Source of the DNA: a virus
Taxonomy: Duplodnaviria; Caudoviricetes
Virus record (IMG/VR): IMGVR_UViG_3300027763_000080
Location: 1 to 50,833 of that record
DNA: 50,833 bases
Strand: one strand, 5' to 3'
A program made the translations under genes and the position numbers. Below, piece after piece: positions 1,144-32,207 of this stretch. The notes below the pieces were generated by a model that was given only the letters and a program-made list of their open reading frames with translations, searched no databases and was not told the origin of the DNA. Position 1 is the stretch's first letter; the number at the start of each line of letters is the position of its first letter.

Positions 1144-4100
1144 ATGGCAAAGAAAATCGAAACAAATGATGGTAAGAAAGGCGGATGGCTTGTAGGTAAA
1201 AGACATTACGATGAACAAGGAAATCCATTAGGAGGTATAAAAGCAGTGGTAACAGACGCAGGTAACAAACCCGTTGAGTTAGAAGGTGGTGAAGTTATTA
1301 TTAATCGCGAAGCATCAAAAAAATACTGGAAAGAATTATCTCGTATTAATCAATCAGCAGGTAATGGCGTTGCAATAGGACCACCTGAAGGTGCAGATGA
1401 AGACCCAGATGAATATTCAGATGGTGGGAACATCATAGAATTTAATCCTAATCATATTCCAAACAAATGGATTGTTAGTTACGCAAAAAAGATTAAAAAA
1501 TCATATCCGGATATTTGGAAGTTAGGTGGTAACATTTTTGGTAATGAAGCATTCAATAATTTAGAACGTGTTTCAGAACGCGGGTATTGGTTGGATTCAG
1601 AAAAATGGATGTATATCAAATGGCGTTCATACGTTGCAAGACATATTCATGATTTTAGAATTGAAGGTGTAGTTGCGATGTTGAAATGGTGTGATAAGGT
1701 TGAAAAAGGATGGCCTTATATGAAACAACTAATTGAAGAGAAAATTGCTAAGAAAGGTTGGAAACATAAACAAGCATCTAAAATGGATGATGGTGGGAAT
1801 GTAAATAATAACACCATAAAAGTTTCAAAATACATTTTAGAAAGACATCCGAAAAAAGGAGATATTTTTGAAGGTGGTAAAGCAGATGGTTACAAGATTG
1901 TAGGAATTAAAAAATTAAAAAAACATTATGGCATTATTTACGAAATTTTACTATTAGACACGAAAGCAAATGATAATGGGGGTTTTAATAGAAGAATTGT
2001 TGGTTATACACCTCAAACAAAAAAAATCAGTGATTTTAACCAAAGTTTTTTAACGTCAACAAAAGGTAAATATTATACAGTATGGTCAGATTCTGATATA
2101 GATGGGCCCATAAGTACTAAAATGAAAGAAGGCGGTAATGTAGTTACATACAAAGACAAATACAACACCAAATACAAGTATAAAAAAGGTGAATCGCATA
2201 GTTTAGAAGAAATATCAAAAGATACAGGCGTTTCAATGAAAGGTTTGCAACAGATTTACGATAAAGGAATTGGCGCATACAAAACAAATCCAAAAAGCGT
2301 AAGACCTAATGTCACTTCAAAAGAGCAATGGGCAATGGCAAGAGTTTACAGCGCAGTAATGGGTGGTGATGCAGCTATCGTTGATAAAAATGAATTGAAG
2401 ATGAATAAAGGAGGCAAAGTAGGTCAAGAAATTACATGCATAAAATGTGATTGGAATTGGAACACGAATAAGTCAGAGGAATTTGATAAATATGTTTGTC
2501 ACAATTGTGGTACTGATAATTCTAGAATATATGCACCTAAAAAACTTAAAGGTGGTGGTAATGTCGAATGGCAAAAAGCAAGAATTGGTGATAGTGCAAG
2601 AGTTGTTTCTGAAAACAAAATGGGTGTAATTGTAAAAGATTATGGTCGTAAATTCCACTTGAAATTTGTTGATGGAACAGAAAAAACTTACGATGCTGAT
2701 GAACTTGACTTCTATCGTTTAGATGAAGATGAATACGCAGGTGGTGGTTTAATAACTACTTACGGAGGTGAAGCAAAGATTGGTGATAAAGGTCAATTGC
2801 AAACGCGAAAAGGTAGGATTGATATTCAAATTACGAACATTACAGATAAGTGGGTTATTTTTAACGATTTAACTGAAGGTGGTAAAAGAAAAGATTCACC
2901 ACGCGATAAATTCATTGAAAATTATAGAGGAAATGCACCTCTTGGTTCGGCTGTAACACCTGCAACATCAGTTCAACCACCAGCAGATATTTACGAACTT
3001 AAAAAATCTATATTTGCGCCTGATTTATACAATACTAAAATAATTGTAGATACTCCTGAGCAATCAGCAGCTTTTCAAAAAATAGCAATTGAATTAGGAA
3101 TTACTTGGGGACGTGGTATTAAAACAATCCAAAATACAAATGGAAAATATTTGTATGTAGATGATGAATTTGGTGCCGGCGAACAAATACTTGGTTTTGA
3201 TAAAGATACTCCTCCTGCTAAAGATTTTTACGAAAATAGGCCAAGTAAAGAATTATTCTTTGATGATTTATTTCAATTGAAAGGAACAACGGGTAAACAA
3301 ACGTTTAAACTTAAACGTGAAATAACTGCAAGTGAATTATTTGATACAAAAATTAATTTGTTATCAGAAGACGAATCAAAAGCTTTTCAAGAATTAATTT
3401 TAACATTAGGGTTTAACTGGAATGGCAAAAATATTGTACAATATATCGACAAGCCATTTTTATTCCTTGATGATGATTTTAGTATATTTCACTCAACTGA
3501 TAAAGGTCACTTTTCACAAAGAAAAAACAAAGAGATATTCTTCAAGGATATTTTCGAAGTAATAGAAACACCTACGACACCTAATAAACCAGTTCACGAA
3601 CTTGCAAATTATCGTATCAAAACAGAACAAGAGTTTATTGATGAGTATGGTTTTAATTGGAAAGAAAAAGTAAGTTGGTCATCAAAAGATTACATGAACT
3701 ACTTATTTGGCGAAAAACTTACAGATATTGTAACACCAGATTTATATGATACTGTTCTTGATGGTGTCAAAGGATATATGAGTTTTAAGACTAATTATTC
3801 AAGAGAAACTCAAGATGATACTGAATGGGTTATCAATTCTAAAATGTATAAGTTTGACCCTATTTTATTAAAACAAAACGTTGAAACAAATTTAGGTAAA
3901 GTACCAACACACAAAGAAATATCTGAAGTAAAAACAGAAAGAGAATTAATTCATGATGAATATAATGATATTGTTTTCTTGATTGAAAATACACCAGGAA
4001 CAGATTCAGAAAATATGCTTTCGTTAAAAACGCAAGCGAAAGAATTGAAAGACAAACTTGATGCACTTGATTTAGAATTGAAAAAGAAAAATGAAGGCGA

Positions 4101-4899
4101 ATTTAATTTATTAGACGAGTTATTCAGTGCATCATCAGTTAAACCACAAGCAAGGTATGATTTAAAACCTTACAATGATGGATTTGCACCTGATGGACAA
4201 CCAACTGCATTGCCGAAAAATATTTATGATTGGACAATGACTGAAGAATTTCAAAATTGGTTTGGTAACTTTACGTTAGCATACAATTACAGAAATTCAT
4301 CATACGAAAATGTTCCATGTTCGGTTGTTGTAAGTAAAAATTACGAGCCATTAGTTGTGTATCATGGAACGGGAGCAGAATTCTCATTCTTTAAATTTGA
4401 TAGATTTCCCGCTATGTACTTTGCAGAAAATGAAGCATACTCAAATTGGTTTGCGGAAATGAAAGGTCAAGAACAAGGAACACAAGGTTACGTATATCCA
4501 TTCTTCTTGAATATTAGAACACCATTGGATTTAACATATTTTGAAATTAATGATGTTTCACCAGATGATTTTATTGATTGGATGTATTTACAGACAGGTC
4601 TTGATGCTGATGAACTTAAAATCAATAAAGCGTTAACCGACCCGAATAGAAAATTCAAAGCATGGATGTATTTACGAAATAGCCCCGAAATGTTGCAAGT
4701 GCTGAAAGATAAGAACGTTTGTGATGGAATTGTGTATTACGAAGATAATCCATCAGTAGATACAAACTCTGACGCATACAAAACGAAAGCATACATTGTT
4801 TTCAATTCAAATTCAGCAAAAATCGCAGAACCAAGCAGACATAAATTAGCTATTTCAGCGATGAGAAGTTTTTATTTAAAAAGAGGAGGTAAATTATGA
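1144..4899 (+). CDS. Polyvalent multidomain protein with C-terminal ADP-ribosyltransferase-like (ART-PolyVal) domain
   Basis: C-terminal FQNWFG...PLVVYHGT...MYFAE...VYPFFLNIRTP...DGIV...YIVF; DUF5824-like GLQQIYDKGIGAYKT...EQWAMARV; CxxC...CxxC zinc ribbon; SH3-like segment; domains separated by (M/L/Y)xxGG. Confidence 0.75.
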   Translation: MAKKIETNDGKKGGWLVGKRHYDEQGNPLGGIKAVVTDAGNKPVELEGGEVIINREASKKYWKELSRINQSAGNGVAIGPPEGADEDPDEYSDGGNIIEFNPNHIPNKWIVSYAKKIKKSYPDIWKLGGNIFGNEAFNNLERVSERGYWLDSEKWMYIKWRSYVARHIHDFRIEGVVAMLKWCDKVEKGWPYMKQLIEEKIAKKGWKHKQASKMDDGGNVNNNTIKVSKYILERHPKKGDIFEGGKADGYKIVGIKKLKKHYGIIYEILLLDTKANDNGGFNRRIVGYTPQTKKISDFNQSFLTSTKGKYYTVWSDSDIDGPISTKMKEGGNVVTYKDKYNTKYKYKKGESHSLEEISKDTGVSMKGLQQIYDKGIGAYKTNPKSVRPNVTSKEQWAMARVYSAVMGGDAAIVDKNELKMNKGGKVGQEITCIKCDWNWNTNKSEEFDKYVCHNCGTDNSRIYAPKKLKGGGNVEWQKARIGDSARVVSENKMGVIVKDYGRKFHLKFVDGTEKTYDADELDFYRLDEDEYAGGGLITTYGGEAKIGDKGQLQTRKGRIDIQITNITDKWVIFNDLTEGGKRKDSPRDKFIENYRGNAPLGSAVTPATSVQPPADIYELKKSIFAPDLYNTKIIVDTPEQSAAFQKIAIELGITWGRGIKTIQNTNGKYLYVDDEFGAGEQILGFDKDTPPAKDFYENRPSKELFFDDLFQLKGTTGKQTFKLKREITASELFDTKINLLSEDESKAFQELILTLGFNWNGKNIVQYIDKPFLFLDDDFSIFHSTDKGHFSQRKNKEIFFKDIFEVIETPTTPNKPVHELANYRIKTEQEFIDEYGFNWKEKVSWSSKDYMNYLFGEKLTDIVTPDLYDTVLDGVKGYMSFKTNYSRETQDDTEWVINSKMYKFDPILLKQNVETNLGKVPTHKEISEVKTERELIHDEYNDIVFLIENTPGTDSENMLSLKTQAKELKDKLDALDLELKKKNEGEFNLLDELFSASSVKPQARYDLKPYNDGFAPDGQPTALPKNIYDWTMTEEFQNWFGNFTLAYNYRNSSYENVPCSVVVSKNYEPLVVYHGTGAEFSFFKFDRFPAMYFAENEAYSNWFAEMKGQEQGTQGYVYPFFLNIRTPLDLTYFEINDVSPDDFIDWMYLQTGLDADELKINKALTDPNRKFKAWMYLRNSPEMLQVLKDKNVCDGIVYYEDNPSVDTNSDAYKTKAYIVFNSNSAKIAEPSRHKLAISAMRSFYLKRGGKL

Positions 4900-6062
4900 T
4901 TTTAGATAAATCAAACTTAACAGTTAATAAAGTAGGTGCTAGAACAGAGTATATTTACAAATATCCATCTGATGATAAAAAAATACTCATTTCTTTATTT
5001 GCAGTTCAATTAGCAAGTGGTATTTCATTTATTGTAGACAAAGTAGTTGAAGATTTAGAAGGTAATGTCATTACCAAATCAGAAGATACTATTTTTAACA
5101 CTGATGATTTAAAACAAGCGTGGGAAAAGTTTGAAGATTTGTTCGAAGAAACACAAAAACAAGAAAACCCACAACAAGGAGGAGAGGAACCAGAAGTTCA
5201 AGTATTGATGGTCACAGTTGAGAAAAATGGTAAGTCATTTGTTTTCTTATTGAAACAAGATAACACACAAGAATTAGCATTAGAAATGAATATTGATAAT
5301 TATGATGTTCAAAACACTAAACCAAAATTTGCTGAACTTGATTTCACAAATGACCCTAATCTATCTGAACCATTTAACACTAAATGGAATTTAGCATTGG
5401 TTGATGATGTGAAATATGAAGATGCATCAAATGATAGTACAACGTTTATTATTGCATTAGAATCAGTTAATCAACCGGGACAACCGGGTGGAACAGAAGG
5501 ACCCGAACAAGAAGGTGAACAACCTCAACCGGGTGAACAACCTCAACCGGGTGAACAACCTCAACCGGGCGAACAACCTCAACCGGGTGAACAACCTCAA
5601 CCTGGTGAACAACCTCAACCGGGTGAACAACCTCAACCAGGCGAACAACCTCAACCGGGTGAACAACCTCAACCGGGCGAACAACCTCAACCGGGTGAAC
5701 AACCTCAACCGGGTGAACAACCTCAACCGGGCGAACAACCTCAACCAGGCGAACAACCTCAACCAGGTGAACAACCTCAAAGAAACCCAGATGAAACTGG
5801 GGGCGATTTAAGCGGTGGTCAAAGTGAATCACAAGGTGGAGTTCAAAATGTTGATTATAAAGGTGCAATTCAACAATTATCAGAAGAAACAGGTTTATCT
5901 CCTGATGATATTGAATCTTCATTAAGGACTGAAAGAATATTTGATTCTTTTTTAACTTTGAATAATGTAAATGTAAATGAACTAAAAAATAAATTCAACG
6001 GGTCTGATTTAACAAGAAATCAATTCGTAAAACAAATGGTAAGCGATTTCAAAAATATATAA
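4896..6062 (+). CDS. Acidic protein with long (GEQPQP)n linker
   Basis: 388-aa ORF coupled to upstream gene by ATGA overlap; immediately upstream of AAA+ ATPase. Confidence 0.8.
   Translation: MILDKSNLTVNKVGARTEYIYKYPSDDKKILISLFAVQLASGISFIVDKVVEDLEGNVITKSEDTIFNTDDLKQAWEKFEDLFEETQKQENPQQGGEEPEVQVLMVTVEKNGKSFVFLLKQDNTQELALEMNIDNYDVQNTKPKFAELDFTNDPNLSEPFNTKWNLALVDDVKYEDASNDSTTFIIALESVNQPGQPGGTEGPEQEGEQPQPGEQPQPGEQPQPGEQPQPGEQPQPGEQPQPGEQPQPGEQPQPGEQPQPGEQPQPGEQPQPGEQPQPGEQPQPGEQPQPGEQPQRNPDETGGDLSGGQSESQGGVQNVDYKGAIQQLSEETGLSPDDIESSLRTERIFDSFLTLNNVNVNELKNKFNGSDLTRNQFVKQMVSDFKNI
5514..5780 (+). repeat. 18-bp coding tandem repeat, about 15 copies (ggtgaacaacctcaaccg), encoding GEQPQP
   Basis: Directly visible; variation only at synonymous third positions. 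Confidence 0.97.
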
Positions 6063-6063
6063 C

Positions 6064-7452
6064 ATGGATAAGGAAAAACAAATAGAAAGATTACAAGCAA
6101 TCATTGATAAAAATGCAAACCCACAAGCTGTTGCAAGTGCGCAATCTCAATTGAGAATGCTTGAAACAGAAGGTAAAGTTGCAATTCACAATCAATCAGC
6201 AGGTGTAACACAAGACCCAGATGCACAAGCAATTCTTGATGCATTGAACAAAGCTATTTCAAAAGGATTTACAAGTGGGGTAGATGTACGTAAAGAAATT
6301 GAAGATGTGTTGAAAGCACGTAAAATCAATGAAACTGATTTATCTGATAGTTTACGCGCATTAATTCAAAGCAGTCGTAAGATTGAACTTACAATCACTC
6401 AACTCAACGCACAACCGAAAGTAACATCAACAACTGATGCATTTTTGCAAAAGCCATTAACTCAAATGTTGTTGAGTGATATGAGAGCTAGAAACAATTC
6501 ATATTTATATGGTGCTGCAGGTACAGGTAAAACATACATGGCAGAAGAAATTGCTAAATTATTAGGTTGGGAGTTAATTACTGTGAACTGTTCACAATAT
6601 ACATCGCCTCTTGATATTTTAGGTGGTCAAACGATTGAAGGATACCAAGAAGGTCGCGTATCAATGTCGTGGGAAAACGTGATTTATGAATCTGACGGAA
6701 GTGCAAGACGAGTAGATGGTGTTGTTTTGTTACTTGATGAGTTACCAAAAATTGACCCGAATACAGCAGGTATCATGAATGATGCATTAGCGAAGGTTAA
6801 AAACTTTTCTGAAAACCCAGCAACTGGATTGTTAATTAGACCTTCAATCAGAAATGGTAAAGGTGTGCAATTATTCCTACAAAATCTTTTTGTTATTGCA
6901 ACAGGTAACGTTCCGTTAAATACGATTGACCCCGATTATGAAGCGAACTTCAAACAAGATTTATCTTTACAAGACCGTTTTGTAGGTTCAACATACAAAA
7001 TTGGATATGATTATCAGTTTGAATACAATGTAATTATGTCGGGATATGCTTTCATTTGGATTTTCCTTATTAAAGTACGTGAAGCAATCGTTGAACTTCG
7101 CGCACAATCACAAGCATTCGTTTCAATGCGTATTATGATTAATTCAAAAGAAACATATCGCACATATAGAGATGTAATGGATGAAATTCAAACAGGAAAA
7201 GCTAATTTGATTTCAAGTCCAAAAACATTGGTTGATACAATGGATGAATTCTTCAACCTATTCAAACCCGCTCAAAAAGAATCAATTATAACTATGGTTG
7301 ATTATGATGGTTTCAAAAAAATAGTTGCAGAGAAAAACAAAATGCCATACATTCATTCAGGTATGAAAGTTGCAAATGATTTCAACACAGCATCTGAAAT
7401 TGCAGAAGCACAAACATTGATTACAAAATATAAACAATCTCAATCTAACTAA
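6064..7452 (+). CDS. MoxR/CobS/CbbQ-like AAA+ ATPase
   Basis: Walker A GAAGTGKT, Walker B LLLDE, ATGN sensor, LQDRF arginine finger; N-terminal helical extension. Confidence 0.85.
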   Translation: MDKEKQIERLQAIIDKNANPQAVASAQSQLRMLETEGKVAIHNQSAGVTQDPDAQAILDALNKAISKGFTSGVDVRKEIEDVLKARKINETDLSDSLRALIQSSRKIELTITQLNAQPKVTSTTDAFLQKPLTQMLLSDMRARNNSYLYGAAGTGKTYMAEEIAKLLGWELITVNCSQYTSPLDILGGQTIEGYQEGRVSMSWENVIYESDGSARRVDGVVLLLDELPKIDPNTAGIMNDALAKVKNFSENPATGLLIRPSIRNGKGVQLFLQNLFVIATGNVPLNTIDPDYEANFKQDLSLQDRFVGSTYKIGYDYQFEYNVIMSGYAFIWIFLIKVREAIVELRAQSQAFVSMRIMINSKETYRTYRDVMDEIQTGKANLISSPKTLVDTMDEFFNLFKPAQKESIITMVDYDGFKKIVAEKNKMPYIHSGMKVANDFNTASEIAEAQTLITKYKQSQSN

Positions 7453-7455
7453 AAG

Positions 7456-9123
7456 ATGGGTGTATATAACCACTGGTCAGACGCGCAATTATATGGGTGG
7501 GCTTTAGATACCGTAGAGGAATTTAAAGAATATTATGATTCTCAAAAAGGAAATGGTTCATTTGATGCATACGTACTCAGGTATAAAAATGATATTTATG
7601 ATAGACGTCTTTCAAAATTATTTGAAGGTAATGCAGTGAATTTTAATTTAGGTGGCGAAAATGATAAAAGTAAATTAGAATTTACAGATAGACCAATTGG
7701 TGTTTTTGATTTCAGTTTAGCTTCACAACAGTTATTTCGTGTACATGAATTTTACAGTGAGCAATTAAAAAACGACCAACCGAATTTATTTGATAGTTAT
7801 AATGTTCCAAGTGGTGTTGTACCTAATTATTATGTTAATAAGGTAGTAATTCAAGGGGTAAATAATTTTATTTATAAAGACGATAAAACAGGCACAGAAT
7901 ACATTTGTGTTCGTAGGCAAAAAGGATTAACTAAACTTTTACAAGAACAACCTAACCTTCAAACAAAAATACAAGAGGGAACTGGTTTGATTATACCTTC
8001 AATGCCAACGAATAAAGTAAAGTTCGCATCAAAAACTAAAAAACCATACTTGAAATACAAAAGACAAGGTGGTAAGGTTCGTTATGTCGAAATTTACTCA
8101 GCTCATTATTATACTAGAATGAGCGATGATTTCTCTTTCGCTGTAAGGCATATACCTATGTTAATGGCAGCTGAATATCTTGAAAAAATGGGTACATTGA
8201 CTAAATTGTATGTTACACGTTTTGTAATTGCAGCAAACTCACCTAAACCAAAGAAAAAAGATGTTTTAACTGGAACTACTTTACCTCTGTATGATGAATG
8301 GGTAAAATATAATCAACCAAATAGTAGTTATACGATTATGCCTATGTGCGTTAAAGAATATGGGCAAGAAATTGATAAAGCAAGGTTTTTCGCAGTAGGT
8401 TCAAGGTCTTATATAGATTTATATGAGCATGCAGTTTATAATATGCGATTTCATGAATTAGCATCAGGTTCTTTGAACATAGGAGGAAATCCAGATTGGA
8501 CAGAAAAACAATATCAAGAAGGTTTTGAACGTTTCAGACAGAAATATGCACAATATTCAGAAAAAGGTATTTGGAAAGCAAAAGAAGTTATACCACAAGG
8601 TTTAATATATTTTCATGATTTACCTTTGAATATAAAATGGGATGATTTCAAAAGTCAAACTTTAAGGGCATTTAATAAAACTGATATTTCAGAATTGATT
8701 AAAAATGAACCTTCGGTAAATAAATGGTTTGAAATGTGGATGAAAATATCTGCATTTACAATCAAAGACAAATTTGATATTTTTAACTCAAATAAACCAT
8801 CTAAGGTTTATCGCGATATTATCAAACAACAACAATCAATTCTTCAAGAGATTGAATTTTTGATTAGAGTTGAAAAAAACACACGTTTCCAAGAGGTATT
8901 GACTGATTTTTTAGCATTTGTAAAAGTTCCTTTACAATATAATGCTTACGGTAATACGGTTAGTGTGGGTTACTCTTATGAAAACCCAATCAAATACATT
9001 ACAGAGAAAATCAATGAAATGACAATTTTTGGTGGAGGAGGTATTTTTGCAACACCACCAGAACAGATTGAAAAGCGGAATGAAATAGCTGAAAAGCTAA
9101 TTGAAGAACTAACTAAAATATAA
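7456..9123 (+). CDS. Hypothetical protein, possible CobT/vWA-like partner of the AAA+ ATPase
   Basis: 555-aa ORF directly after the MoxR-type ATPase; no clear MIDAS motif, so the function is positional inference only. Confidence 0.45.
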   Translation: MGVYNHWSDAQLYGWALDTVEEFKEYYDSQKGNGSFDAYVLRYKNDIYDRRLSKLFEGNAVNFNLGGENDKSKLEFTDRPIGVFDFSLASQQLFRVHEFYSEQLKNDQPNLFDSYNVPSGVVPNYYVNKVVIQGVNNFIYKDDKTGTEYICVRRQKGLTKLLQEQPNLQTKIQEGTGLIIPSMPTNKVKFASKTKKPYLKYKRQGGKVRYVEIYSAHYYTRMSDDFSFAVRHIPMLMAAEYLEKMGTLTKLYVTRFVIAANSPKPKKKDVLTGTTLPLYDEWVKYNQPNSSYTIMPMCVKEYGQEIDKARFFAVGSRSYIDLYEHAVYNMRFHELASGSLNIGGNPDWTEKQYQEGFERFRQKYAQYSEKGIWKAKEVIPQGLIYFHDLPLNIKWDDFKSQTLRAFNKTDISELIKNEPSVNKWFEMWMKISAFTIKDKFDIFNSNKPSKVYRDIIKQQQSILQEIEFLIRVEKNTRFQEVLTDFLAFVKVPLQYNAYGNTVSVGYSYENPIKYITEKINEMTIFGGGGIFATPPEQIEKRNEIAEKLIEELTKI

Positions 9124-9127
9124 AAAA

Positions 9128-9451
9128 ATGAGATTATACAAAGCACAAGAGTTAGAGTTAAAAGGTTTGATGTTCAGATTGAGTCAGTACGAAAAATCAG
9201 GAAATGGTAAAATATATAACATTGGCGTTATGACTAATTCTGATTTTCCTACAGATATATTTGTGCAATACGAATCTACTGAAGTCAATAGTTTGGCTCC
9301 TGTTGTTGAATCTAATTTGTATCAAATAACACAGAACGGTATGTTAATTAATTTCAAAGAGTTTTTTCCTAATCCTTTTGAAAAATATGCATTCTTAGGT
9401 CGTTGTTTGGTTGAAAACATAGAGAACATTGAAATTATAGACAATCAATAA
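9128..9451 (+). CDS. Hypothetical protein
   Basis: 107-aa ORF in operon with A-rich start. Confidence 0.7.
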   Translation: MRLYKAQELELKGLMFRLSQYEKSGNGKIYNIGVMTNSDFPTDIFVQYESTEVNSLAPVVESNLYQITQNGMLINFKEFFPNPFEKYAFLGRCLVENIENIEIIDNQ

Positions 9452-9458
9452 GTCATAA

Positions 9459-11180
9459 ATGGAAAATACAAAAGAACAAGTTGTAGCTGAATGGAAAGCT
9501 GTTAACGAACCAAGATTAAAGGAAATAAAATCAGCAAATCCAGATTTATATTCTGCGATTAACCTTGCTTTGAATTTCTTAAACAAAAAATTAGGTGGTG
9601 ATGAATTACCTGTTGAAATTGAAGAGGTAGTTGAAACAGAACCTACAAACACAAAACAATGGAAGCTAGATGATTTCAAATATAGTAAAATCATAGTTGA
9701 TACACCAGAAAAATCAAAAAGATTTCAAGAATTAGTTTTAAGTTTAGGTGCTGAATGGGTAGATTATGATGTGGAAGATGAATCGAAAAAAAAATTAGTC
9801 AATAATACTGATGAAAAATATTTAGCTTTAAATAATTATGGCGCTCTATATTTTTTAAGTCAAGAAGCCTGGGAAGATAGTGATAAAGAGGAAAGAATTT
9901 ACGAAGAAATATTCCCAAATGTAAGTGAAACAAAACAAGTACAATTATCTGATTTTTACAATACGAAAATTTATTTTGATACACAAGATAAGTCAAAAAA
10001 ATTCCAAGAACTTATTTTTAGCTTAGGTGGTTTATGGGCAAATGGTAACAAAAGGGTATTTGATTATAAATACATTTTTGTTGATGATGAGGGAATATTA
10101 TCAAAAACCGAGTCTTCATCATATTTTACACAAGATTCGAACAGAGAAATATTCTACGATGATATTTTTCCAAATGTAAGTGAAACAAGTGTTTGGCGTT
10201 TTAAAACAAGAGAAGAGTTAGATGCAGAGGGTATTGGAGGAACACTTGGGATACCTCAATCTAGTTTTGATTTATTTTTAGGACAACCTTTATCTGAAAT
10301 TTATTCAAAAGAGAGATTTAATAATTTAGCTGAAGCAGTAGAAGCATTAGAAAATGATAGAGTTGCTTTAGGTCAAGCACAATGGGCAATCAATTTAAAA
10401 TATTTTACTAAAAACCCATTACCAAGCAAATCAACATCACAAGAAGTTGGATATACATATACAATACCTATTGAAACATATCCATCTAAATTAAAATTTT
10501 CTATGATTAATTTTAATTTTGAACCAAATATAGGAGATAGAAAATCCCCATCTCAATCAGCAGGTTCTTTAAAAAGAAAAGCAATGAGAATGACTAAATC
10601 AGATGATTATGTTAATATGATTCTTGAAACTAAATTCAAAGGTAATGATGGGAATTGGTATTCAATAAATGTTGCTAAAGGAGGAACGTGGACATGGAAA
10701 GAAACAACTCCACCTCCTGCACAACCTCAAACGACTACATCTACTGCATCATCTCAACCTGCACCAACAACTACAATCAAAAAAGAGTGGAAACCAGAGG
10801 ATTTAGTGGGTAAGAAGTTAAATTGGAATGGTCGCGAGTATGATGTTATTAAATTCAAACGCAACAATCCTAAATACAAATCTTATACGTTAAGAACACA
10901 ACAAGGTACAGAACTTGAAGGTAAATTAACAATTGGTGCGATTAACAAGTTACTTAATGATGAATTTGTAAAAGGAATCACAATCGTAAAACCTGTACAA
11001 ACATCAACACCTGAAAACGATTTTCAATTGCAATTAAGTAAAATGACAAAAGATAAACTTTACGCGTTATACAGCGAAACATTAGATGCAAAACAAGAGT
11101 TTAATGAAGATGATGATGAATACAATGAATTAACTATTCAACTAGTTGATATTGAAAAAGAAATAAATAATAGAAAGTAA
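9459..11180 (+). CDS. Multidomain protein sharing repeated domains with the 1144 polyvalent protein
   Basis: Two KI.vDT.e.S..FQel...LG..W domains also present twice in ORF 1144; RKSPSQSA...KGNDGNWY...W motif. Confidence 0.75.
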   Translation: MENTKEQVVAEWKAVNEPRLKEIKSANPDLYSAINLALNFLNKKLGGDELPVEIEEVVETEPTNTKQWKLDDFKYSKIIVDTPEKSKRFQELVLSLGAEWVDYDVEDESKKKLVNNTDEKYLALNNYGALYFLSQEAWEDSDKEERIYEEIFPNVSETKQVQLSDFYNTKIYFDTQDKSKKFQELIFSLGGLWANGNKRVFDYKYIFVDDEGILSKTESSSYFTQDSNREIFYDDIFPNVSETSVWRFKTREELDAEGIGGTLGIPQSSFDLFLGQPLSEIYSKERFNNLAEAVEALENDRVALGQAQWAINLKYFTKNPLPSKSTSQEVGYTYTIPIETYPSKLKFSMINFNFEPNIGDRKSPSQSAGSLKRKAMRMTKSDDYVNMILETKFKGNDGNWYSINVAKGGTWTWKETTPPPAQPQTTTSTASSQPAPTTTIKKEWKPEDLVGKKLNWNGREYDVIKFKRNNPKYKSYTLRTQQGTELEGKLTIGAINKLLNDEFVKGITIVKPVQTSTPENDFQLQLSKMTKDKLYALYSETLDAKQEFNEDDDEYNELTIQLVDIEKEINNRK

Positions 11181-11199
11181 AAATTATTAATTTTAGAAC

Positions 11200-13077
11200 A
11201 TGTTAAGAAGCACAGCAATCACAAAAGAACTTGCAGTTATTGAACGCAAGTTAAGCGAAACAACAAACGAAACGTTGAAAACCGCTTTAAAGAAGAAACA
11301 AGCACGTTTAAAAGACGAGTTGAAGGATGCATCAAAATCTGCACCACAACTTGCAAAAACGTTATTGGCACAACGCGCACAAATAAAAGCGTTACCAAAA
11401 TCAGATTTCAATGATTTAATTCGTAGGTTATCTAAAAAACCCGAATATTCATTTTTGAAAACGATGGGTAAAAGTACAATTAGAACAGACCTTGAACGTC
11501 CAGCAAAACCTGTTGGATGGAGATTTAAAGGTCGTGGTAATTATGATAAACCTACAATGACTCAAATTGCGAAAGGTAAGAGAAATGGAACGGTATATCG
11601 CGAAGTGCGACCAATTCGTTCAGATGTTAATCTTGCGGTTCGTTTAGAGAAAGGCGGTGTTGTAGGTCAAGAAATTGTAATTGATTACCAAGGTGATGAA
11701 TACAAAGGAGTTATTGCACAAATAACAGATGAGGGTGATTACATTGTAGATATCGAAAATGGACGTACAGTGTTAGCTGAAAAGAATATGGATGTTATTT
11801 CATTAGGTACTATGAAGAAAAAATCTATGCCAAGTGAACGTAAAAAACGTTTTGGATTATTTGAAGATGGCGGTAACATTGAAGAAGAAAATAACGAGAT
11901 GTTACATTCACAAGCAGTTGAAGCAAAACATCATGTTGAAGAATTACACAAAGTATTAACAAGTAAAACAGTTGTTGAACCTTGGGTAGTTGCAAAAATG
12001 GAACGCGCAACAACAGATTTGTCTGATGTCACACATTACCTTGATGGTGAAAACAAAGCAGACATGAAAAAACCTATTTACAAAAATGGTGGTCGATTGA
12101 CAGATGCACAACAAGCGAAGTTTGATAAAGTTATGCATGAATGGAAACAAGGTAAATTGCATTCAGGTTCTGATAACGGACCTATCGTAACTGACCAAGA
12201 CCAAGCAATTGCAATTGCATACGCAGAAGCAAGAGGAATGAAGAAAATGGCGTTTGGTGGAATGATTGATGAAAACAATGTTTCAACAGGTGGTATTTTG
12301 AGAATGGAAGAATTGGCTCCAAATGAAACACTTGATGAATTTATTAATAATGCAAAATACATTGTTAGTTCATTAGAAGATGAAGGTTTCGAAAAAGATG
12401 AAATATATACTTTCCTTGCACACATGATGATTAGAAACACAGGTGTTAAAATGTCAGAAGGTGGATCTTTTGCAAATAAAGTAATGAATAGAATTAAAGA
12501 AACCAACGATGATAGGAAACCAGGTTCGCAAATTATTTGGGTAAATGATACAAGCAGAAACACAATTTATTCAAATCCAACTTACAAATACGTAAAAGAA
12601 AATATCGGAGAAGTTGTATTTAGATTTGACGGAACACTAGCGCGTAAAGATTTTCGTTTAGAAGTTTTTGATAAAAATTCACAAAAAAGATATCCTGAAA
12701 ACATTATTAAAACATTCACTTCAACTAAAAAAACAAAAAAGGATGCAGTTGAAGATTTAAAACAAAAATCTGAAAACTGGTTACAATCAAATGAAATGGC
12801 TAATGGCGGTGGAGTTGATGCTATGTCAACAGTAAACGAAATTGCTAGACTATCAGGATTAAGAGCTGTTGCTGTTGCTGAATGGGGTGATAAGAACAAT
12901 ATCAATCTTAGTATGATTTTGAAAGATTTAAAATCAAAAAAAATCAAAGGTGCAGATTTGATGACTGCAATTGTTGGTAAACCAGGTAACAAATACTCAA
13001 AAGAGTTAATTGGTAAATATGCAAAAATGGCTACCGGTGGTTCAATGTCAGGATGGAAACACAAAGGCAATTGCTAA
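11200..13077 (+). CDS. Second GG-punctuated multidomain protein, includes a DUF6496-like domain
   Basis: KFDKVMHEWKQGKLHSGS...QAIAIAYAEAR; seven [MLFY]xxGG separators; basic N-terminal region. Confidence 0.7.
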   Translation: MLRSTAITKELAVIERKLSETTNETLKTALKKKQARLKDELKDASKSAPQLAKTLLAQRAQIKALPKSDFNDLIRRLSKKPEYSFLKTMGKSTIRTDLERPAKPVGWRFKGRGNYDKPTMTQIAKGKRNGTVYREVRPIRSDVNLAVRLEKGGVVGQEIVIDYQGDEYKGVIAQITDEGDYIVDIENGRTVLAEKNMDVISLGTMKKKSMPSERKKRFGLFEDGGNIEEENNEMLHSQAVEAKHHVEELHKVLTSKTVVEPWVVAKMERATTDLSDVTHYLDGENKADMKKPIYKNGGRLTDAQQAKFDKVMHEWKQGKLHSGSDNGPIVTDQDQAIAIAYAEARGMKKMAFGGMIDENNVSTGGILRMEELAPNETLDEFINNAKYIVSSLEDEGFEKDEIYTFLAHMMIRNTGVKMSEGGSFANKVMNRIKETNDDRKPGSQIIWVNDTSRNTIYSNPTYKYVKENIGEVVFRFDGTLARKDFRLEVFDKNSQKRYPENIIKTFTSTKKTKKDAVEDLKQKSENWLQSNEMANGGGVDAMSTVNEIARLSGLRAVAVAEWGDKNNINLSMILKDLKSKKIKGADLMTAIVGKPGNKYSKELIGKYAKMATGGSMSGWKHKGNC

Positions 13078-17047: not shown

Positions 17048-17896
17048 ATGGCAAAGGAAGTTAAAAATAAAGAACGCGCAGCGGGTATGATGGTCACCAC
17101 TGGTGTACAAGGTGTAGGTAAAACCTATCAGAACATGTATATCATTAAATCATACGTTGCAGATAAATTCTTCAACAAAGTTAGGGGAAGGAAATGTCTT
17201 ATCATGGATACGAATGGTGAGTACACAAAAGAACAATTTGCGCGTAATGATATTGAAAACTTCAACCCACGAGTTATTGCTTTGCGAGATATTCCCGAAT
17301 GGAGTTTATCGGATATAGTTGAATGTAGACGTATTGATGCAAAGAACCTTTCTATACCTGAAAAGAAAAAGGTATTAGAATACATCATTCGTTATTACAA
17401 AAATGGTTTACTTGTTGTTGAAGATATCAACACCTATATCTTGAATGTTACGCACATGGAGGAAATTGTAGGGGGATTGGTAAACTTACGTCACCGAGGT
17501 GTAGACATGTTAATTTCATATCAATCACTTCGCGCAGTTGAACCTCGTATGTATTCAAATTCACGTTGGATGCGTTTACATTATCAACAAGATAATGTGA
17601 ATGATATTAAAGGTAAAATCGCAAACCTAGCATTATACAAAATTGCTGAAATACTAGTTAAGACAAGATACTACAATCAAGATAAACGATTCTTTGTGTA
17701 TATTCATTGTTTTGAAAATAAGATTGAAGGTAAGTTCACGAAAAAGGAATTTTTGGATGCATGTGAAAAGTATTTGAATATCAATAAACGCGAATTAAAG
17801 GAGTATGTTGAAATGAATGGTACGAGTAAACCAGAAGCTATGCTCGTATTACAAAAACAATTTTACGAACAGTTTTACGGTAACACAAATAAGTAG
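17048..17896 (+). CDS. Genome-packaging ATPase, A32/P9-like (FtsK-HerA superfamily)
   Basis: N-terminal Walker A GVQGVGKT, Walker B LLVVED, LRHRGVDMLISYQ (Arg-His plus conserved Gln); 282 aa with no nuclease domain. Confidence 0.8.
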   Translation: MAKEVKNKERAAGMMVTTGVQGVGKTYQNMYIIKSYVADKFFNKVRGRKCLIMDTNGEYTKEQFARNDIENFNPRVIALRDIPEWSLSDIVECRRIDAKNLSIPEKKKVLEYIIRYYKNGLLVVEDINTYILNVTHMEEIVGGLVNLRHRGVDMLISYQSLRAVEPRMYSNSRWMRLHYQQDNVNDIKGKIANLALYKIAEILVKTRYYNQDKRFFVYIHCFENKIEGKFTKKEFLDACEKYLNINKRELKEYVEMNGTSKPEAMLVLQKQFYEQFYGNTNK

Positions 17897-18383: not shown

Positions 18384-19016
18384 ATGTTAGAAGAAATAGC
18401 AGTATGCATTGTAACGAATGAAAACGCAATTGAAACGCAATACGTAATTGAAAACCTTAAAGAGAAAACCAAGTGTAATATAAATATTTACACAACGCAA
18501 TACGAAAATTCATTGTGCGATTCTGTAAACAGTTTGTTGACTCAAGTAAAAGAACAAATATGTGTATTGTTTCCTGCAAACGCATTGGTGGATAACAATT
18601 GGTGTGAGGATTTACTTTTTAACATAAAAAATGTTGCAAACCCAGGAATTGTAGGCATACGACATGGCAAAGAGAAATTAAAACTTTCGCCTGTGCTTTT
18701 CACAAATGATGAGTTGATGAATGTTTGGGTTGCAGAAAATAACATCATTGAAGGCATTATGATGTTTCACATGAAACATCTTACAGAACAAATGGGTATG
18801 TTTGATAAATTATTTGACCATACGGGTTTTCAATATGCAGAGTTTTCATTAAAGTTCGCTTTTTCGGGTCTAACGAATTTTTACATACGTAAACAGACAT
18901 TCATACCACTTGAAATAGAAAATGAAGCTCTGTACCCAAAGAAAACAAAAGATGGCGTATTTTTAATTAACGAATTTGTAAAAGCAAATATTGACTTCCA
19001 TGGAACTGAAAATTAA
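18384..19016 (+). CDS. GT-A/GT2-like glycosyltransferase (divergent)
   Basis: IAVCIVT start, SVNSLL, ALVDNNW, GMFDKLF...G...AEFSLK; DxD motif degenerate. Confidence 0.5.
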   Translation: MLEEIAVCIVTNENAIETQYVIENLKEKTKCNINIYTTQYENSLCDSVNSLLTQVKEQICVLFPANALVDNNWCEDLLFNIKNVANPGIVGIRHGKEKLKLSPVLFTNDELMNVWVAENNIIEGIMMFHMKHLTEQMGMFDKLFDHTGFQYAEFSLKFAFSGLTNFYIRKQTFIPLEIENEALYPKKTKDGVFLINEFVKANIDFHGTEN

Positions 19017-19683
19017 AGAATATGATTTAGATAAGCGGTGGGAATTAAAACGAGATTCGATTTATAACCTACGCGATAAAATTGATAGGTTGAAAAGAAA
19101 ACTAAAAGCTGATTTATATTCATCAGATGATAAAACACGCCTAACTGCACTTGTTGTTAGAATTATGATGTTAACATCAGAACGTGTAGGTAATTCTGAA
19201 TCTGCGAAAAATGGTCATTTCGGGGTAACTGAATTTAAACGCAAACACATTACTGTAGATAGAAACACAGTCACATTGAATTATGTGGGTAAGAGTGGTG
19301 TTGAACATGAAAAACAATTCACAGACGTCACATGTGCGATGATGTTACGCGATTTAATGAAGCGAAATGATTCATTTGTATTCGTTACGAAAGATGGTTT
19401 TAAAATCAAAGCAGACAAAGTAAATCGTTATTTGCATAAGTTTGATGCAAAATCAAAAGACATCAGAGGATTCAATGCAAATAGGTTGATGGTGATGGAA
19501 TTAAAACGCATAGGTAAAGTAAAAGACGAAAAACAACGCGCGAAAGTATTTAATGAAGCATTACGTAAAATTGGCGCAAAAATTGGACATGGACCTGCAA
19601 CATTAAGAAAACAATACCTGTTACCTGAAATTGAAGTACAATTTTACAAACATGGTTCGATAGGAAGAATTAAAATTGATTAA
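19000..19683 (+). CDS. Type IB DNA topoisomerase, catalytic domain only
   Basis: ERVGN (Arg), YVGKSG (Lys), SKDIRGF (Arg), IGH...RKQYL (His, Tyr nucleophile). Confidence 0.85.
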   Translation: MELKIKEYDLDKRWELKRDSIYNLRDKIDRLKRKLKADLYSSDDKTRLTALVVRIMMLTSERVGNSESAKNGHFGVTEFKRKHITVDRNTVTLNYVGKSGVEHEKQFTDVTCAMMLRDLMKRNDSFVFVTKDGFKIKADKVNRYLHKFDAKSKDIRGFNANRLMVMELKRIGKVKDEKQRAKVFNEALRKIGAKIGHGPATLRKQYLLPEIEVQFYKHGSIGRIKID

Positions 19684-22828: not shown

Positions 22829-23566
22829 ATGAACTCAGTAGAAAAAGAACTACACGGTTACATTAATGGAACAGAGAGAATGAGCGGATTTGACTCATAC
22901 GATTCATACGAAGGAAACATGTCTTATTTCGATAATGATGATATGTCTTACTTTGACAATGATGATATGTCTTACGCTTCAGGACCAAACGCATCTTCAA
23001 TGGTGTCTGACCCATACGTAATCCAGTACCAAAACACGACAACTGCAGCAGTAACAGCTGTATTATTCGGATTCAACGATTATATTTCTGCAACTAACTA
23101 CGGTAACCCTGCAGCAGTAGTAATTACCAACTTACAAGGTGGTACTTACGGTCGTTTAGTAACACAATCGAACAACAAAGCGTTCAAAATTGGTAAATGG
23201 CGTTTCCAATCAACGACAGCTTCTCAGTTATCTCAAACGTTAACTTTGAACCACGTTGATGCGAATGGTAAACAATATTCAACTCCGTTGAACTTGTCTA
23301 TCGCTCGTGATGCTTACCAGCAACAATCAGACATCTTAGATGTAACTAAACCAGTTACAGTAGATGGTAACACATACATTACTTTTGCTTTGGCAGGGTC
23401 AGCTGTATTTGTTATCTCTATGTTCCCAGTAGAGGTTATGTCTTCGAAAGCTGCATTGAACGGTGGTCGCTCATTGAACATGGCTCGCGCTCCGCGTTTG
23501 TCAGGTAAAAATGTTGCTCCAGTAATCATCCAAACTGCTCAAGCGGTTAAAGGAATTACAGGATAG
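22829..23566 (+). CDS. Candidate major capsid protein (beta-rich, jelly-roll-like) with acidic N-terminal repeat
   Basis: Strongly biased high-expression codons (TTC, AAC, TAC, CGT, ATC); flanked by long leader and strong terminator; beta-strand pattern; (MSYFDNDD)x2 N-terminal repeat. Confidence 0.6.
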   Translation: MNSVEKELHGYINGTERMSGFDSYDSYEGNMSYFDNDDMSYFDNDDMSYASGPNASSMVSDPYVIQYQNTTTAAVTAVLFGFNDYISATNYGNPAAVVITNLQGGTYGRLVTQSNNKAFKIGKWRFQSTTASQLSQTLTLNHVDANGKQYSTPLNLSIARDAYQQQSDILDVTKPVTVDGNTYITFALAGSAVFVISMFPVEVMSSKAALNGGRSLNMARAPRLSGKNVAPVIIQTAQAVKGITG

Positions 23567-23588
23567 TCATCTATTCAACCTACATATT

Positions 23589-23625
23589 AAAGGGCAGGGT
23601 AATATTATTTGCTCTGCCCTTTTTT
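23589..23625 (+). terminator. Strong rho-independent terminator after the capsid candidate
   Basis: AGGGCAG/CTGCCCT stem followed by TTTTT. Confidence 0.85.
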
Positions 23626-23657
23626 AATAACAAATACATTCACTAAAAAACAGAACC

Positions 23658-23786
23658 ATGGCAAACGAATATTTCACAAAAATGAACAAAGCACGTAAAG
23701 AAGGTGCTAAGTCTTTTACTCACAATGGTAAAACGTATGTGGCAACAAAGACAAAAACAGGAATGATTGTTTACAAAGCGAAATAA
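23658..23786 (+). CDS. 42-aa basic protein (not in ORF track), possible DNA-binding core protein
   Basis: MANEYFTKMNKARKEGAKSFTHNGKTYVATKTKTGMIVYKAK. Confidence 0.7.
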   Translation: MANEYFTKMNKARKEGAKSFTHNGKTYVATKTKTGMIVYKAK

Positions 23787-23793
23787 TAACTAT

Positions 23794-24279
23794 ATGAGTT
23801 CGGATAAAAATAAACTTAGGAATGGTGGTCAAGAGATAACACTCATGACTGTTCTTGCTAATGAAGCAACGGGTCCATCTCGTAAGATATTAAAGGAATA
23901 TGGTCAATCGGATGCTAAAAACTATAAAGACCTTGAAGTAAAACTTGCTGAGTTATATTTTAACACACAAGATAAAGTGGCACTTGAAAAAAAGTTAGCT
24001 GATATTCATCCACATAAGAATTGGATTCTTAAAAATGTAAAGCCTGCTATTGAAGAAACATCAAAACAGGAGCTAGTAGAGGAAGTTAAATCTAATGCAA
24101 CAGGCGATTGCATGTGTCCTCAATGCCAAAATCAACCTTATACAGATAAAAACTTTTTAAACGCAGAAGGTCCTACATCCACAAAAATTGGAATTGAAGG
24201 ATTAATTGTGCCTATGATGTTATTAGGATTATTAGGAATAACGTATGTATTTGTATTAAAAGCTGTAAAAAATCAATAA
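23794..24279 (+). CDS. Tail-anchored membrane protein
   Basis: Start re-assigned to ATG 23794; CMCPQC; SNATG and LNAEG motifs; C-terminal TM. Confidence 0.75.
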   Translation: MSSDKNKLRNGGQEITLMTVLANEATGPSRKILKEYGQSDAKNYKDLEVKLAELYFNTQDKVALEKKLADIHPHKNWILKNVKPAIEETSKQELVEEVKSNATGDCMCPQCQNQPYTDKNFLNAEGPTSTKIGIEGLIVPMMLLGLLGITYVFVLKAVKNQ

Positions 24280-24281
24280 GT

Positions 24282-24752
24282 ATGAAAGTATTAGTAAATC
24301 AAGACAGTAAAGTTTTAATACCGAACACAGAACATAAAAACTTCACAGAAACAAATGAAGTCATCGGTAAAGAAAATGTATTGTCTGGTGAAATAAAGAA
24401 CGTACAAGGACTTCGTAGAGGAGAACCTTTTACATATAGATTATTTGTAACTAACGATAATAAAATTATTTATTTAAAAAACATAACTCCCATGGAAACA
24501 ACAGAAGTGACATTAGGAGCAGATAGCCAAAGAAGCTCAACTGTAGTTAATTTGATTCCTGCTGAAACATTCAATAAAGTAAAAACAACAGGATTAGTAT
24601 TAGGTGCATTAGCTGGATTTGCATATTGCAAGTACAAAAAATGTGATACAAAGAAAACTGTTATGTACATTTTCGCAGGTGCGTTAATTGGGTATGCATC
24701 AGCATACGTTGTAGATAGAAACAGAAAAGGTACTGTAGTAGCAGGAAATTAA
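24282..24752 (+). CDS. Membrane protein with two C-terminal TM helices
   Basis: GLVLGALAGFAY and YIFAGALIGYASAYV. Confidence 0.75.
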   Translation: MKVLVNQDSKVLIPNTEHKNFTETNEVIGKENVLSGEIKNVQGLRRGEPFTYRLFVTNDNKIIYLKNITPMETTEVTLGADSQRSSTVVNLIPAETFNKVKTTGLVLGALAGFAYCKYKKCDTKKTVMYIFAGALIGYASAYVVDRNRKGTVVAGN

Positions 24753-24772
24753 TAAATCAAAAAAAATTCAAA

Positions 24773-26152: not shown

Positions 26153-26154
26153 TT

Positions 26155-26262
26155 ATGTCTAAAGTTCAACAAGAAGATAAAGTATTGTTAGCAATTTACG
26201 CAAGTTTTGCTATTGGATACCTAGCAATGTTCTTTATTAAACTTAAACATTCAAAAAAATAA
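26155..26262 (+). CDS. 35-aa membrane protein (not in ORF track)
   Basis: MSKVQQEDKVLLAIYASFAIGYLAMFFIKLKHSKK. Confidence 0.65.
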   Translation: MSKVQQEDKVLLAIYASFAIGYLAMFFIKLKHSKK

Positions 26263-26267
26263 AATAA

Positions 26268-26933
26268 ATGCTTTACACTGATTTTTGCGATGATTTTAAT
26301 GTATGCCTTAACAAAGGTGATTATACTTCAGCAAATGAAGTCTTAATGCATGAATTAGGTGCAACATTGATTCGTAGAAAGAAAGATTTTGTGCATTTGT
26401 TAAATGAATCTGGTGTACCTGGCGAAATGAGTGATAGTGATTTGGAATTGATTGACAGATTTGTCACTAATGTTCCTTATAACAAAAACTTAATGGTTGG
26501 AGCATCACTTTTAGTAAACATGCAAAACAAAGAAGTAAATTTTGATGGTGATGCAAAATTATCAGATGAAAATGTTAAAAATGGATACCACGTTATGAAG
26601 ACATATTTTATTGATGAAAATTATTCAAATGCAGTAGATCCAGTAACGGCTATTGCAGAAGCAGTTGGACAAGGATTAAAATTAGGTTCTAATGTTCAAG
26701 AAGGTAAGAATAAAAAGAAATATGGTGGTTTAGACATTGCACAAAAACAACAAGAAGCAAAACAAGCAATGATTGCATCTGCATTACAAGCAAAACAAGC
26801 AAATTTAGCTGCAAAACAAAAAGAACAAGAAACTAAAAATCAAACAAAAAAATTAGTTTACATTATTGGAGGTTCATTGTTAGGGTTAATAGTATTAGGA
26901 GTAACAGTTTATCAACTTCGTAAAAAGAAATAA
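26268..26933 (+). CDS. Tail-anchored membrane protein
   Basis: A/Q/K coiled coil, then TM plus RKKK. Confidence 0.8.
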   Translation: MLYTDFCDDFNVCLNKGDYTSANEVLMHELGATLIRRKKDFVHLLNESGVPGEMSDSDLELIDRFVTNVPYNKNLMVGASLLVNMQNKEVNFDGDAKLSDENVKNGYHVMKTYFIDENYSNAVDPVTAIAEAVGQGLKLGSNVQEGKNKKKYGGLDIAQKQQEAKQAMIASALQAKQANLAAKQKEQETKNQTKKLVYIIGGSLLGLIVLGVTVYQLRKKK

Positions 26934-26934
26934 A

Positions 26935-27312: not shown

Positions 27313-27413
27313 AAAAGGTATTATCAATTTTAGCAGTTGCAGGTTTAGCAGTAATCATTTACAATGAATACAAGAAAGCAAAAGATGCAAAGAAACCAAG
27401 ATTAATTAAATAA
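27309..27413 (+). CDS. 34-aa membrane protein (not in ORF track)
   Basis: MKKVLSILAVAGLAVIIYNEYKKAKDAKKPRLIK; ATGA overlap. Confidence 0.7.
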   Translation: MKKVLSILAVAGLAVIIYNEYKKAKDAKKPRLIK

Positions 27414-27414
27414 T

Positions 27415-27939: not shown

Positions 27940-27950
27940 AAATTAGAAAG

Positions 27951-28730: not shown

Positions 28731-28735
28731 GCAGT

Positions 28736-29524: not shown

Positions 29525-29535
29525 AAAGGAAAATA

Positions 29536-30612: not shown

Positions 30613-30614
30613 TT

Positions 30615-31679: not shown

Positions 31680-31696
31680 TAAACAAAATAAAAAAC

Positions 31697-32191: not shown

Positions 32192-32207
32192 TTAAAAATC
32201 AAATCAA

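Follow-up and report, generated by a model that had tools for sequence, protein, structure and literature searches.

A shared Gly-Gly peptide joins the modules of two polyvalent-type viral polyproteins and may mark them for loading and cutting

Polyvalent proteins are long multi-domain chains of unrelated effectors, for which release by a zincin peptidase has been proposed (Iyer et al. 2017); an embedded HExxH metallopeptidase occurs in 36% of members and is not obligatory (PMC5512222). Among phage tail proteins, the T5 tape measure pb2 is cut after R1127 (PMC10038345), and lambda gpH is processed to gpH* and gpHC, of about 78 and 14 kDa, at a site and by a catalyst that were stated as unknown in 2025 (PMC12617516). 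The cargo protein gp45 of crAss001 is described as one continuous chain, with resolved segments 214-245 and 425-552 (PMC10172136). Here we analyze two large open reading frames (ORFs), ORF 1144 and ORF 11200, of the virus record IMGVR_UViG_3300027763_000080, which was analyzed as a whole (50,833 nucleotides, without end repeats) and is referred to below as the window. Both ORFs encode polyproteins whose modules meet at a short peptide centered on Gly-Gly. This peptide is a joint at which modules are exchanged and lost, and we tentatively propose that it also directs loading and cutting.

The preliminary description of the window listed 14 copies of the motif [MLFY]-x-x-G-G-x-[VILMF], and all of them were found as written, seven per protein. 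In 20,000 shuffles each, ORF 1144 gave a mean of 0.35 copies (maximum 5) and ORF 11200 a mean of 0.15 (maximum 4). The motif accounts for 7 of the 9 GG positions in ORF 11200 and 7 of the 18 in ORF 1144 (overlaps counted). The peptide GWKHK is present in both proteins, as had also been claimed. Elsewhere in the window the loose pattern has eight matches in seven proteins, as lone single or double copies in hydrophobic segments and Gly-rich fibres. Between the polyproteins lie four ORFs without a run of motifs and with one chance-like match, in ORF 7456. The features of the two polyproteins are as follows (aa, amino acids; X2 and X6 denote sequencing runs from which contigs are compared with the window below, and P0002 a protein).

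1144-4899 (+), polyprotein A, 1251 aa, polyvalent-type: six modules bounded by motifs, then 714 aa that lack the motif and include ART-PolyVal, and a last motif at the end
1144-1413 (+), N-terminal module of ORF 1144, resembling a tape-measure C-terminus
1414-1434 (+), motif YSDGGNI
1756-1770 (+), GWKHK peptide at the end of module 2 of ORF 1144, found in 22 of 120 family members
1783-1803 (+), motif MDDGGNV, at which the X2 contig departs from the window
2122-2142 (+), motif MKEGGNV
2134-2376 (+), DUF5824 module, 83 copies in 120 family members, with 28 left and 38 right neighbours
2401-2421 (+), motif MNKGGKV
2422-2544 (+), Zn-ribbon-like module with two CxxC (seen in the sequence; weak Pfam zinc-finger match, E 0.004)
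2545-2565 (+), motif LKGGGNV
2734-2754 (+), motif YAGGGLI
4345-4827 (+), ART-PolyVal ADP-ribosyltransferase domain PF18760 (E 7e-11, above the curated cut-off)
4876-4896 (+), C-terminal motif LKRGGKL right before the stop codon, an ending shared with 14 of 119 relatives
11200-13077 (+), polyprotein B, 625 aa: a basic N-terminal domain followed by six small modules that each end in a motif, then a GWKHK tail
11644-11664 (+), motif LEKGGVV
11860-11880 (+), motif FEDGGNI
12079-12099 (+), motif YKNGGRL, left edge of the module loss in the X6 contig
12112-12234 (+), DUF6496 module, absent motif-to-motif from P0002 and the X6 contig
12247-12267 (+), motif MAFGGMI, right edge of the module loss
12451-12471 (+), motif MSEGGSF
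12796-12816 (+), motif MANGGGV; a second X6 contig ceases to match at 12816
13027-13065 (+), motif MATGGSM and C-terminal GWKHK tail, an ending shared by 35 of 120 family members

Because the pattern was fitted post hoc on window proteins, relatives provide the better test of its enrichment. The best 119 of 175 matches to ORF 11200 and the best 119 of 845 matches to residues 1-600 of ORF 1144 were used; they were found by similarity that included the motifs, so the counts are partly dependent, but the modules next to most copies do not occur in the window. The motif occurred on average 7.0 times in the ORF 11200 relatives, compared to 0.21 after shuffling, and 6.2 times in the ORF 1144 relatives, compared to 0.26. 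At 1128 GG sites taken with no pattern imposed, M (38%, 12.8 times background), Y (21%) and F (20%) made up 79% of the residues at position -3, while V (32%) and I (23%) made up 55% at position +3. The profile derived from the relatives is K-[MYF]-[AEKS]-x-G-G-x-[VIL], with A in 38% of copies at -2 and V, I, L or M in 92% at the hydrophobic place after GG. A literature search covering listings and the openings of abstracts found no description of this motif or of its virus group.

When the profile was run against 1620 ORFs of 15 records, 206 of the 221 matches fell in 36 multi-motif proteins, none of which has a membrane segment; shuffled proteomes gave 5-19 matches. The 14 related records, five picked by the putative capsid protein ORF 22829 and nine by the candidate protease ORF 28736, reach 170 kb and are mostly possible fragments; all 14 encode multi-motif proteins, as judged with a profile trained partly on their kin. 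Most spacings between motifs (1054 of 1511) are 41-130 aa, and 69 are spacings of 6-8 aa, representing back-to-back copies. The distance from the last motif to the C-terminus is 15 aa or less in 27 of 118 proteins, and that from the N-terminus to the first motif in 5 of 118; one of the 240 family proteins starts with M-x-x-G-G. This is unlike a T4-type capsid targeting sequence, which is a single N-terminal tag. A function as an internal start codon was rejected, as Y, F and L make up 56% of position -3. All four Gly codons are used under the motif, the copies are only 56% alike over 27 nucleotides, and 9% of motif pairs share at least 11 identical bases. The peptide is thus fixed while its codons vary, which indicates selection on the protein and leaves an origin from DNA repeats weakly supported.

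A terminal variant, Y-x-[IV]-G-G-L, with one residue between GG and the stop codon, was observed in GG-motif proteins of four loci, at the following positions.

L029:18077-18745; L030:9542-10705; L031:8613-9485; L103:1858-2727 and 3971-4837, proteins ending in Y-x-[IV]-G-G-L

The suggestion that the motif serves as a domain-shuffling joint was supported by four tests. First, internal ends of pairwise alignments cluster at it: in the ORF 11200 family a motif lies within 10 aa of 3753 of 5760 unique ends (65%), compared to a background of 21%, and in the second set within that distance of 46% of 12,169, compared to 13%, counts in which related sequences recur and the motif itself lengthens alignments by a few residues. 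Second, motifs avoid the interior of domains, where their placement had been named as evidence against a joint. In 30 relatives chosen for domain richness out of 238, with overlapping duplicate families excluded, 6 of 221 motifs fall within the best Pfam stretches, compared to 41 expected; four of these are in the N-terminal fringe of DUF5824 and two are within real domains. Third, module order varies widely. Cutting 240 proteins at their motifs yielded 1786 modules (median length 71 aa in the ORF 11200 family), which form 469 clusters including 274 singletons; there are 112 and 111 architectures per 120 proteins in the two families, 14 clusters are common to both, and 92 cluster pairs occur in both orders.

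The fourth test was module loss at strain level. The X6 contig differs from the window at nine places over 11728-12092 (365 bases), then has four added bases, and resumes matching at 12247; this close strain has lost the DUF6496 module in frame, leaving two motifs back to back. Protein P0002 likewise lacks this module from motif to motif, so that domain gain or loss exactly at the motif, proposed as a check on homologues, was indeed seen. The X2 contig departs from the window at 1783, into a different copy of the motif followed by unlike DNA. Edge placement, module exchange and in-frame loss show that the motif is a module joint.

The modules themselves resemble those of polyvalent proteins. 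DUF5824 and DUF6496, both named in the preliminary description, were confirmed at aa 331-411 of ORF 1144 and aa 305-345 of ORF 11200, the latter being the sole family domain found in ORF 11200 itself. For the proposed Zn ribbon the two CxxC pairs are visible and the Pfam matches are weak, and the SH3-like domain is weakly supported (E 0.005-0.05). The ART-PolyVal domain of ORF 1144 had been overlooked. Modules of the relatives include a Zeta-toxin-like kinase, Kinase-PolyVal, topoisomerase IB, GNAT, methylase, ArdA, RadC, RelA/SpoT and LPD11, and the claim of a chain of many effectors is supported by ART-PolyVal here and effector-type modules in relatives. A stand-alone topoisomerase IB core is encoded at 18991-19683 of the window; in relatives the same domain is a polyprotein module.

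At least two unrelated effector domains per chain in variable architectures, domains typical of the class (ART-PolyVal in ORF 1144, others in relatives) and a gene location in a virus record with capsid-like genes suggest that these polyproteins work like polyvalent effector proteins and are fair members of that class. The domains shared, here or in relatives, are ART-PolyVal, Kinase-PolyVal, LPD11, ArdA, RadC, GNAT and ddrB-ParB. Two differences stand out. In polyvalent proteins the peptidase is embedded in the chain, whereas here the candidate enzyme is a separate gene, HExxH being absent from ORF 1144 and ORF 11200 and present as 17 scattered strings in the 240 relatives. Moreover, a fixed joint peptide is present here, whereas none is described in the available passages of PMC5512222, in which 'glycine' has no matches.

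Residues 1-90 of ORF 1144 make up an N-terminal module that is close to invariant in the family alignment (invariant residues G13, G14, L16, G18, H21, G30, G31, E45, E47, G48, E50 and N54). It matches the C-terminal part of the particle-verified tape measure of Cellulophaga phage phi46:1 (E 0.04; hidden Markov model domain E 3.4e-5, Z=1000), in which a motif copy also follows the region resembling the module, and the phrog_7025 tape measure (E 0.012). ORF 1144 itself opens with a motif copy that has no hydrophobic residue, as would be expected where no cut is needed.

Comparison with tape measures suggests where a cut might fall. The T5 pb2 sequence at the published site reads R|AEGGMM, which places the cut between motif positions -3 and -2 and fits the motif from -2 to +3; in sequence terms, A-x-G-G-x-hydrophobic stands directly behind the cut. 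Lambda gpH contains F-ATGG (G736) and Y-ATGG (G781), and a cut after F733 (F|ATGGFT) would give products computed at 79.8 and 12.5 kDa, near the published masses. In crAss001 gp45, a cargo protein verified by mass spectrometry, motif copies occur at G263 and G562, just beyond the resolved segments as published, and a weak one at G828 (plus-strand ORFs, bases 1-80,000). These systems also differ from ours: T5 and lambda have one cut in a tail protein, whereas here 6-17 copies occur per chain in a virus without evident sign of a tail, and ORF 1144 opens with a module like the phi46:1 tape-measure C-terminus whose homology to T5 and lambda is not significant. The crAss001 phage is a tailed podovirus, its gp45 has a membrane segment, and the main text of PMC10172136 makes no mention of cleavage ('cleav', 0 matches). 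A cut before the hydrophobic residue, as made by thermolysin-like enzymes, is also possible.

A candidate reader of the motif is encoded in the window.

28736-29524 (+), ORF 28736, candidate reader: beta-sandwich and HExxH...E metalloprotease-like domain

This 262-aa protein is the sole HExxH protein among the 61 window ORFs, and its residues H184, E185, H188 and E202 are invariant (95 of 95 and 9 of 9 aligned sequences). The predicted model has two domains and is confident; the best peptidase fold matches are M48 BepA (Z 7.8, root-mean-square deviation 4.3, 120 aligned) and Q74D82 (Z 6.6). Pfam gave no match, and an Atlas M48 row scored 0.79. A relative was found in all five records picked by capsid protein, the polyprotein genes of G012-G014 lie within the particle module in the neighbourhood of ORF 28736, and 784 protease clusters in the Atlas point to an abundant virus group.

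Around ORF 28736 a second motif, [FYM]-x-x-[AF]-[DENS]-G in an acidic context, occurs ten times in capsid and membrane proteins (window 22829-34752). Across six records this pattern, also fitted post hoc, was found 62 times in 27,649 aa compared to about 6 after shuffling, and 23 times in 113,663 aa elsewhere; of the proteins with the strict form, 19 of 23 have a membrane segment. The two motifs seem to share an A-x-G core. A lack of the second motif in distant relatives would have tied the protease to the GG motif, but these relatives retain it and the idea was rejected. Both motifs were observed in one protein at L112:5094-6083, L107:3276-4043 and L029:18077-18745, and they overlap in the L107 capsid leader.

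Taken together, these data favor, with a probability of roughly 45%, a reading in which the motif is a load-and-cut mark, cut before A-x-G-G by ORF 28736. The modules are strung together at the shared K-[MYF]-[AEKS]-x-G-G-x-[VIL] peptide; the strings would likely be packed into the particle and cut just before A-x-G-G, probably by the predicted zinc protease of the virus itself, and the host would thereby receive many small effectors. Since each module begins and ends with the same peptide, crossover between any two copies would keep the frame and leave a protein that can still be processed, and this would account for the rapid shuffling; RecT, encoded by the related record G007, may provide a route for exchange between copies only 56% alike. 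A possible role in capsid loading is favored by the conserved C-terminal copies. Packaging, cleavage, the position of the cut (taken from T5 pb2) and the enzyme are the parts of this reading that we infer.

Several observations weigh against the load-and-cut reading. Residues 538-1244 of ORF 1144 lack the motif while holding several domains including ART-PolyVal, and the motif is likewise absent from two large polyvalent ORFs of G007. Cutting at C-terminal and back-to-back copies would free nothing useful. Most of the listed joints and loose ends of X2 and X6 lie away from motifs (24 of 129 and 24 of 167 loose ends listed). T5 pb2 has Arg in place of the hydrophobic residue and scores below the profile threshold. 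The N-terminal module was found in 10 of the 14 related records and is missing from four, which are fragments; its matches to lambda and T5 are not significant (hhalign E 0.1 and 0.57), and for this reason the idea that it is a universal reader was dropped. As for the enzyme, the fold match stays under Z 8, Foldseek returned no match at E <= 0.001, and no relative was found in 50,697 phage records, so that either the tailed phages with similar sites have another reader or the reader here is not ORF 28736. Finally, ORF 28736 sits among proteins carrying the second motif, which may be its only substrate.

The strongest alternative, in our view unlikely, is that the motif is a binding tag by which intact polyproteins are tethered to the inner capsid, to a membrane or to a scaffold, for which the N-terminal module resembling a tape measure may be a candidate, and which serves packaging and ordered release, with no cut. 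Such a tag would suit the 14 ORF 1144 relatives with the motif at the very C-terminus, a 332-aa protein of G005 in which a terminal copy is the sole motif, the tandem copies, and the conservation of both GG flanks. It would also agree with crAss001 gp45, which has copies yet is described as continuous (PMC10172136), and with the N4 virion RNA polymerase, which is described as packaged unprocessed (PMC5512222). However, one tag would be enough for loading, yet nearly all modules, of 50-130 aa, are separated by copies, T5 is cut at a similar site, and the motif is at the C-terminus of only 9 of 1620 ORFs, compared to 3.1 expected.

Cutting by a host protease or by self-cleavage, during assembly or later, as might apply to T5 pb2 and lambda gpH, with ORF 28736 reading only the second motif, appears quite improbable. 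The similar sites in tailed phages without ORF 28736, the gpH cutting mechanism, stated to be unknown (PMC12617516), and the second motif surrounding ORF 28736 would all fit. The domain context of the T5 and lambda sites, however, is always the same, whereas the motif here connects unrelated modules by the hundred, so that self-cleavage would have to rest on seven residues; in addition, polyprotein genes neighbour the protease gene in G012-G014.

The preliminary description had pointed to cutting after GG by an enzyme of the adenain, African swine fever virus (ASFV) or Ulp1 type. Like adenovirus adenain, ASFV S273R and Ulp1, the present system has a short hydrophobic and Gly-Gly code repeated in particle precursors (here putative ones) and two related site types per virus. 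Proteases of this kind follow the consensus (M/I/L)-x-G-G, with the hydrophobic residue at P4. In the present motif P5 is hydrophobic (-3 from the first G) and A, E, K or S takes the P4 place, so that the spacing is off by one; the candidate enzyme is a predicted zinc protease, the host is bacterial, and T5 pb2 is cut before A-x-G-G. The suggested search for an enzyme gene gave no match to PF02902 or PF00770 in five records, which are fragments (the PF00770 control was silent), and thus no C48 or C5 gene; one of the five has inverted terminal repeats. No clan CE protease was found in the scan of G007, which covered 68 of its 74 ORFs. In favor of modules ending in Gly-Gly, they are followed rather than preceded by the motif (27 of 118 C-terminal, 5 of 118 N-terminal), some proteins end one or two residues after GG, and a C48 match in Bacteroides thetaiotaomicron indicates that hosts can have such a protease. 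We found no support for the original claim and regard a cysteine-protease cut as highly improbable. That the motif is only a scar of recombination or a flexible linker, propagated through DNA exchange and lacking a reader, can hardly be correct: the slightly raised identity of third bases in Gly codons (0.42 vs. 0.33), RecT in G007 and tandem remnants would suit it, but the peptide is fixed while its codons vary, few motif pairs share long identical stretches, and the motif is kept across 15 records and at chain ends.

The virus itself encodes the following putative particle proteins.

22829-23566 (+), putative major capsid protein ORF 22829, predicted single jelly roll, acidic leader with the second motif
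29536-30612 (+), ORF 29536, paralogue of the putative capsid protein (hhalign E 4.4e-5)
17048-17896 (+), HerA/FtsK-like P-loop ATPase ORF 17048, putative packaging motor (PF01935, E 3.6e-7)

ORF 22829 is 56-85% conserved and its predicted single jelly roll (pLDDT 87.8) matches jelly-roll capsid chains at a middling level, best a PR772 chain (Z 6.1) and FLiP and phiCjT23 (5.5); an Atlas search with it scored 0.87 at best and provides a lead only. ORF 17048 is conserved at 53-84% in relatives, and the same ORF has a weak small-terminase match (E 0.001-0.002). Many small window proteins end in a membrane segment. A large terminase was sought without a match (PF03237 in 0 of 10 and PF04466 in 0 of 5 records, all possibly partial). 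Against a tailless reading stand the Uroviricota label of the protease clusters in the Atlas and weak tail-fibre, baseplate and small-terminase matches. The virus is probably a tailless, single-jelly-roll virus of Bacteroidota. Among 14 genome-bin contigs that carry the protease gene, nine have the label Bacteroidota, which may reflect binning, and four cell-wall enzymes (SLT, glucosaminidase, endolysin-like and M15 peptidase, at 110-805, 33692-34261, 44861-45562 and 47152-47658) indicate a bacterial host. The sequencing runs in which the virus is best represented are freshwater, and no RNA run was found among those listed.

With tailless viruses of the Helvetiavirae type, which have two single jelly rolls, this virus shares two paralogous predicted single jelly rolls, a HerA/FtsK-like ATPase and many small membrane proteins; it differs in that no such capsid is among the top fold matches (best Z 6.1) and that the records reach 170 kb. 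Polyvalent cargo and a zinc protease are not known from viruses of that type. Searches for phage isolates related by ATPase, capsid or protease gave no match, and ORF 11200 gave one weak match; searches of PDB sequences with the protease, capsid, N-terminal module and ATPase returned nothing significant. Further diverged capsid-like paralogues lie outside the particle module, at G001:103573-105080, at G010:10765-11370 and at several positions in G013.

A MoxR-like AAA ATPase followed by 555-aa and 107-aa ORFs (window 6064-9451) is kept between the polyproteins in G002-G005, and is possibly a chaperone pair for the cargo. The ORF at 4896-6062 of the window contains about 17 tandem six-residue Pro/Gln/Gly/Glu repeats, and phrog_17589-like repeats are common to ORF 9459 (window 9459-11180) and the motif-free part of ORF 1144 (2941-4200). 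Two paralogous Gly/Cys/Asn-rich fibre-like proteins of 1099 and 815 aa (window 35160-40919) have identical N-termini. The 63-kb record G007 (L063-L066) has 127-bp inverted terminal repeats and encodes RecT and an Fe/Mn superoxide dismutase; no DNA polymerase was found among 68 of its ORFs scanned.

Polyvalent proteins are thought to be split into effectors, and hundreds of proteins here have an explicit joint in common, so that the idea can be tested using a 262-aa enzyme and a short reporter. For lambda gpH the motif predicts a cut at the bond after F733, and for crAss001 gp45 it raises the possibility that the chain is not continuous. A further-reaching proposal, which we consider rather unlikely, is that an A-x-G-G-x-hydrophobic code behind the scissile bond spans virus realms, having arisen in tape measures, being used in crAss-like cargo and having become a plug-and-play linker here, with the second motif sharing its core and the same zinc protease. 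If such a linker exists, any captured domain could be loaded, cut free and injected. Motif borders cut about 470 module families from unannotated sequence, which provides a catalogue of candidate anti-defence effectors.

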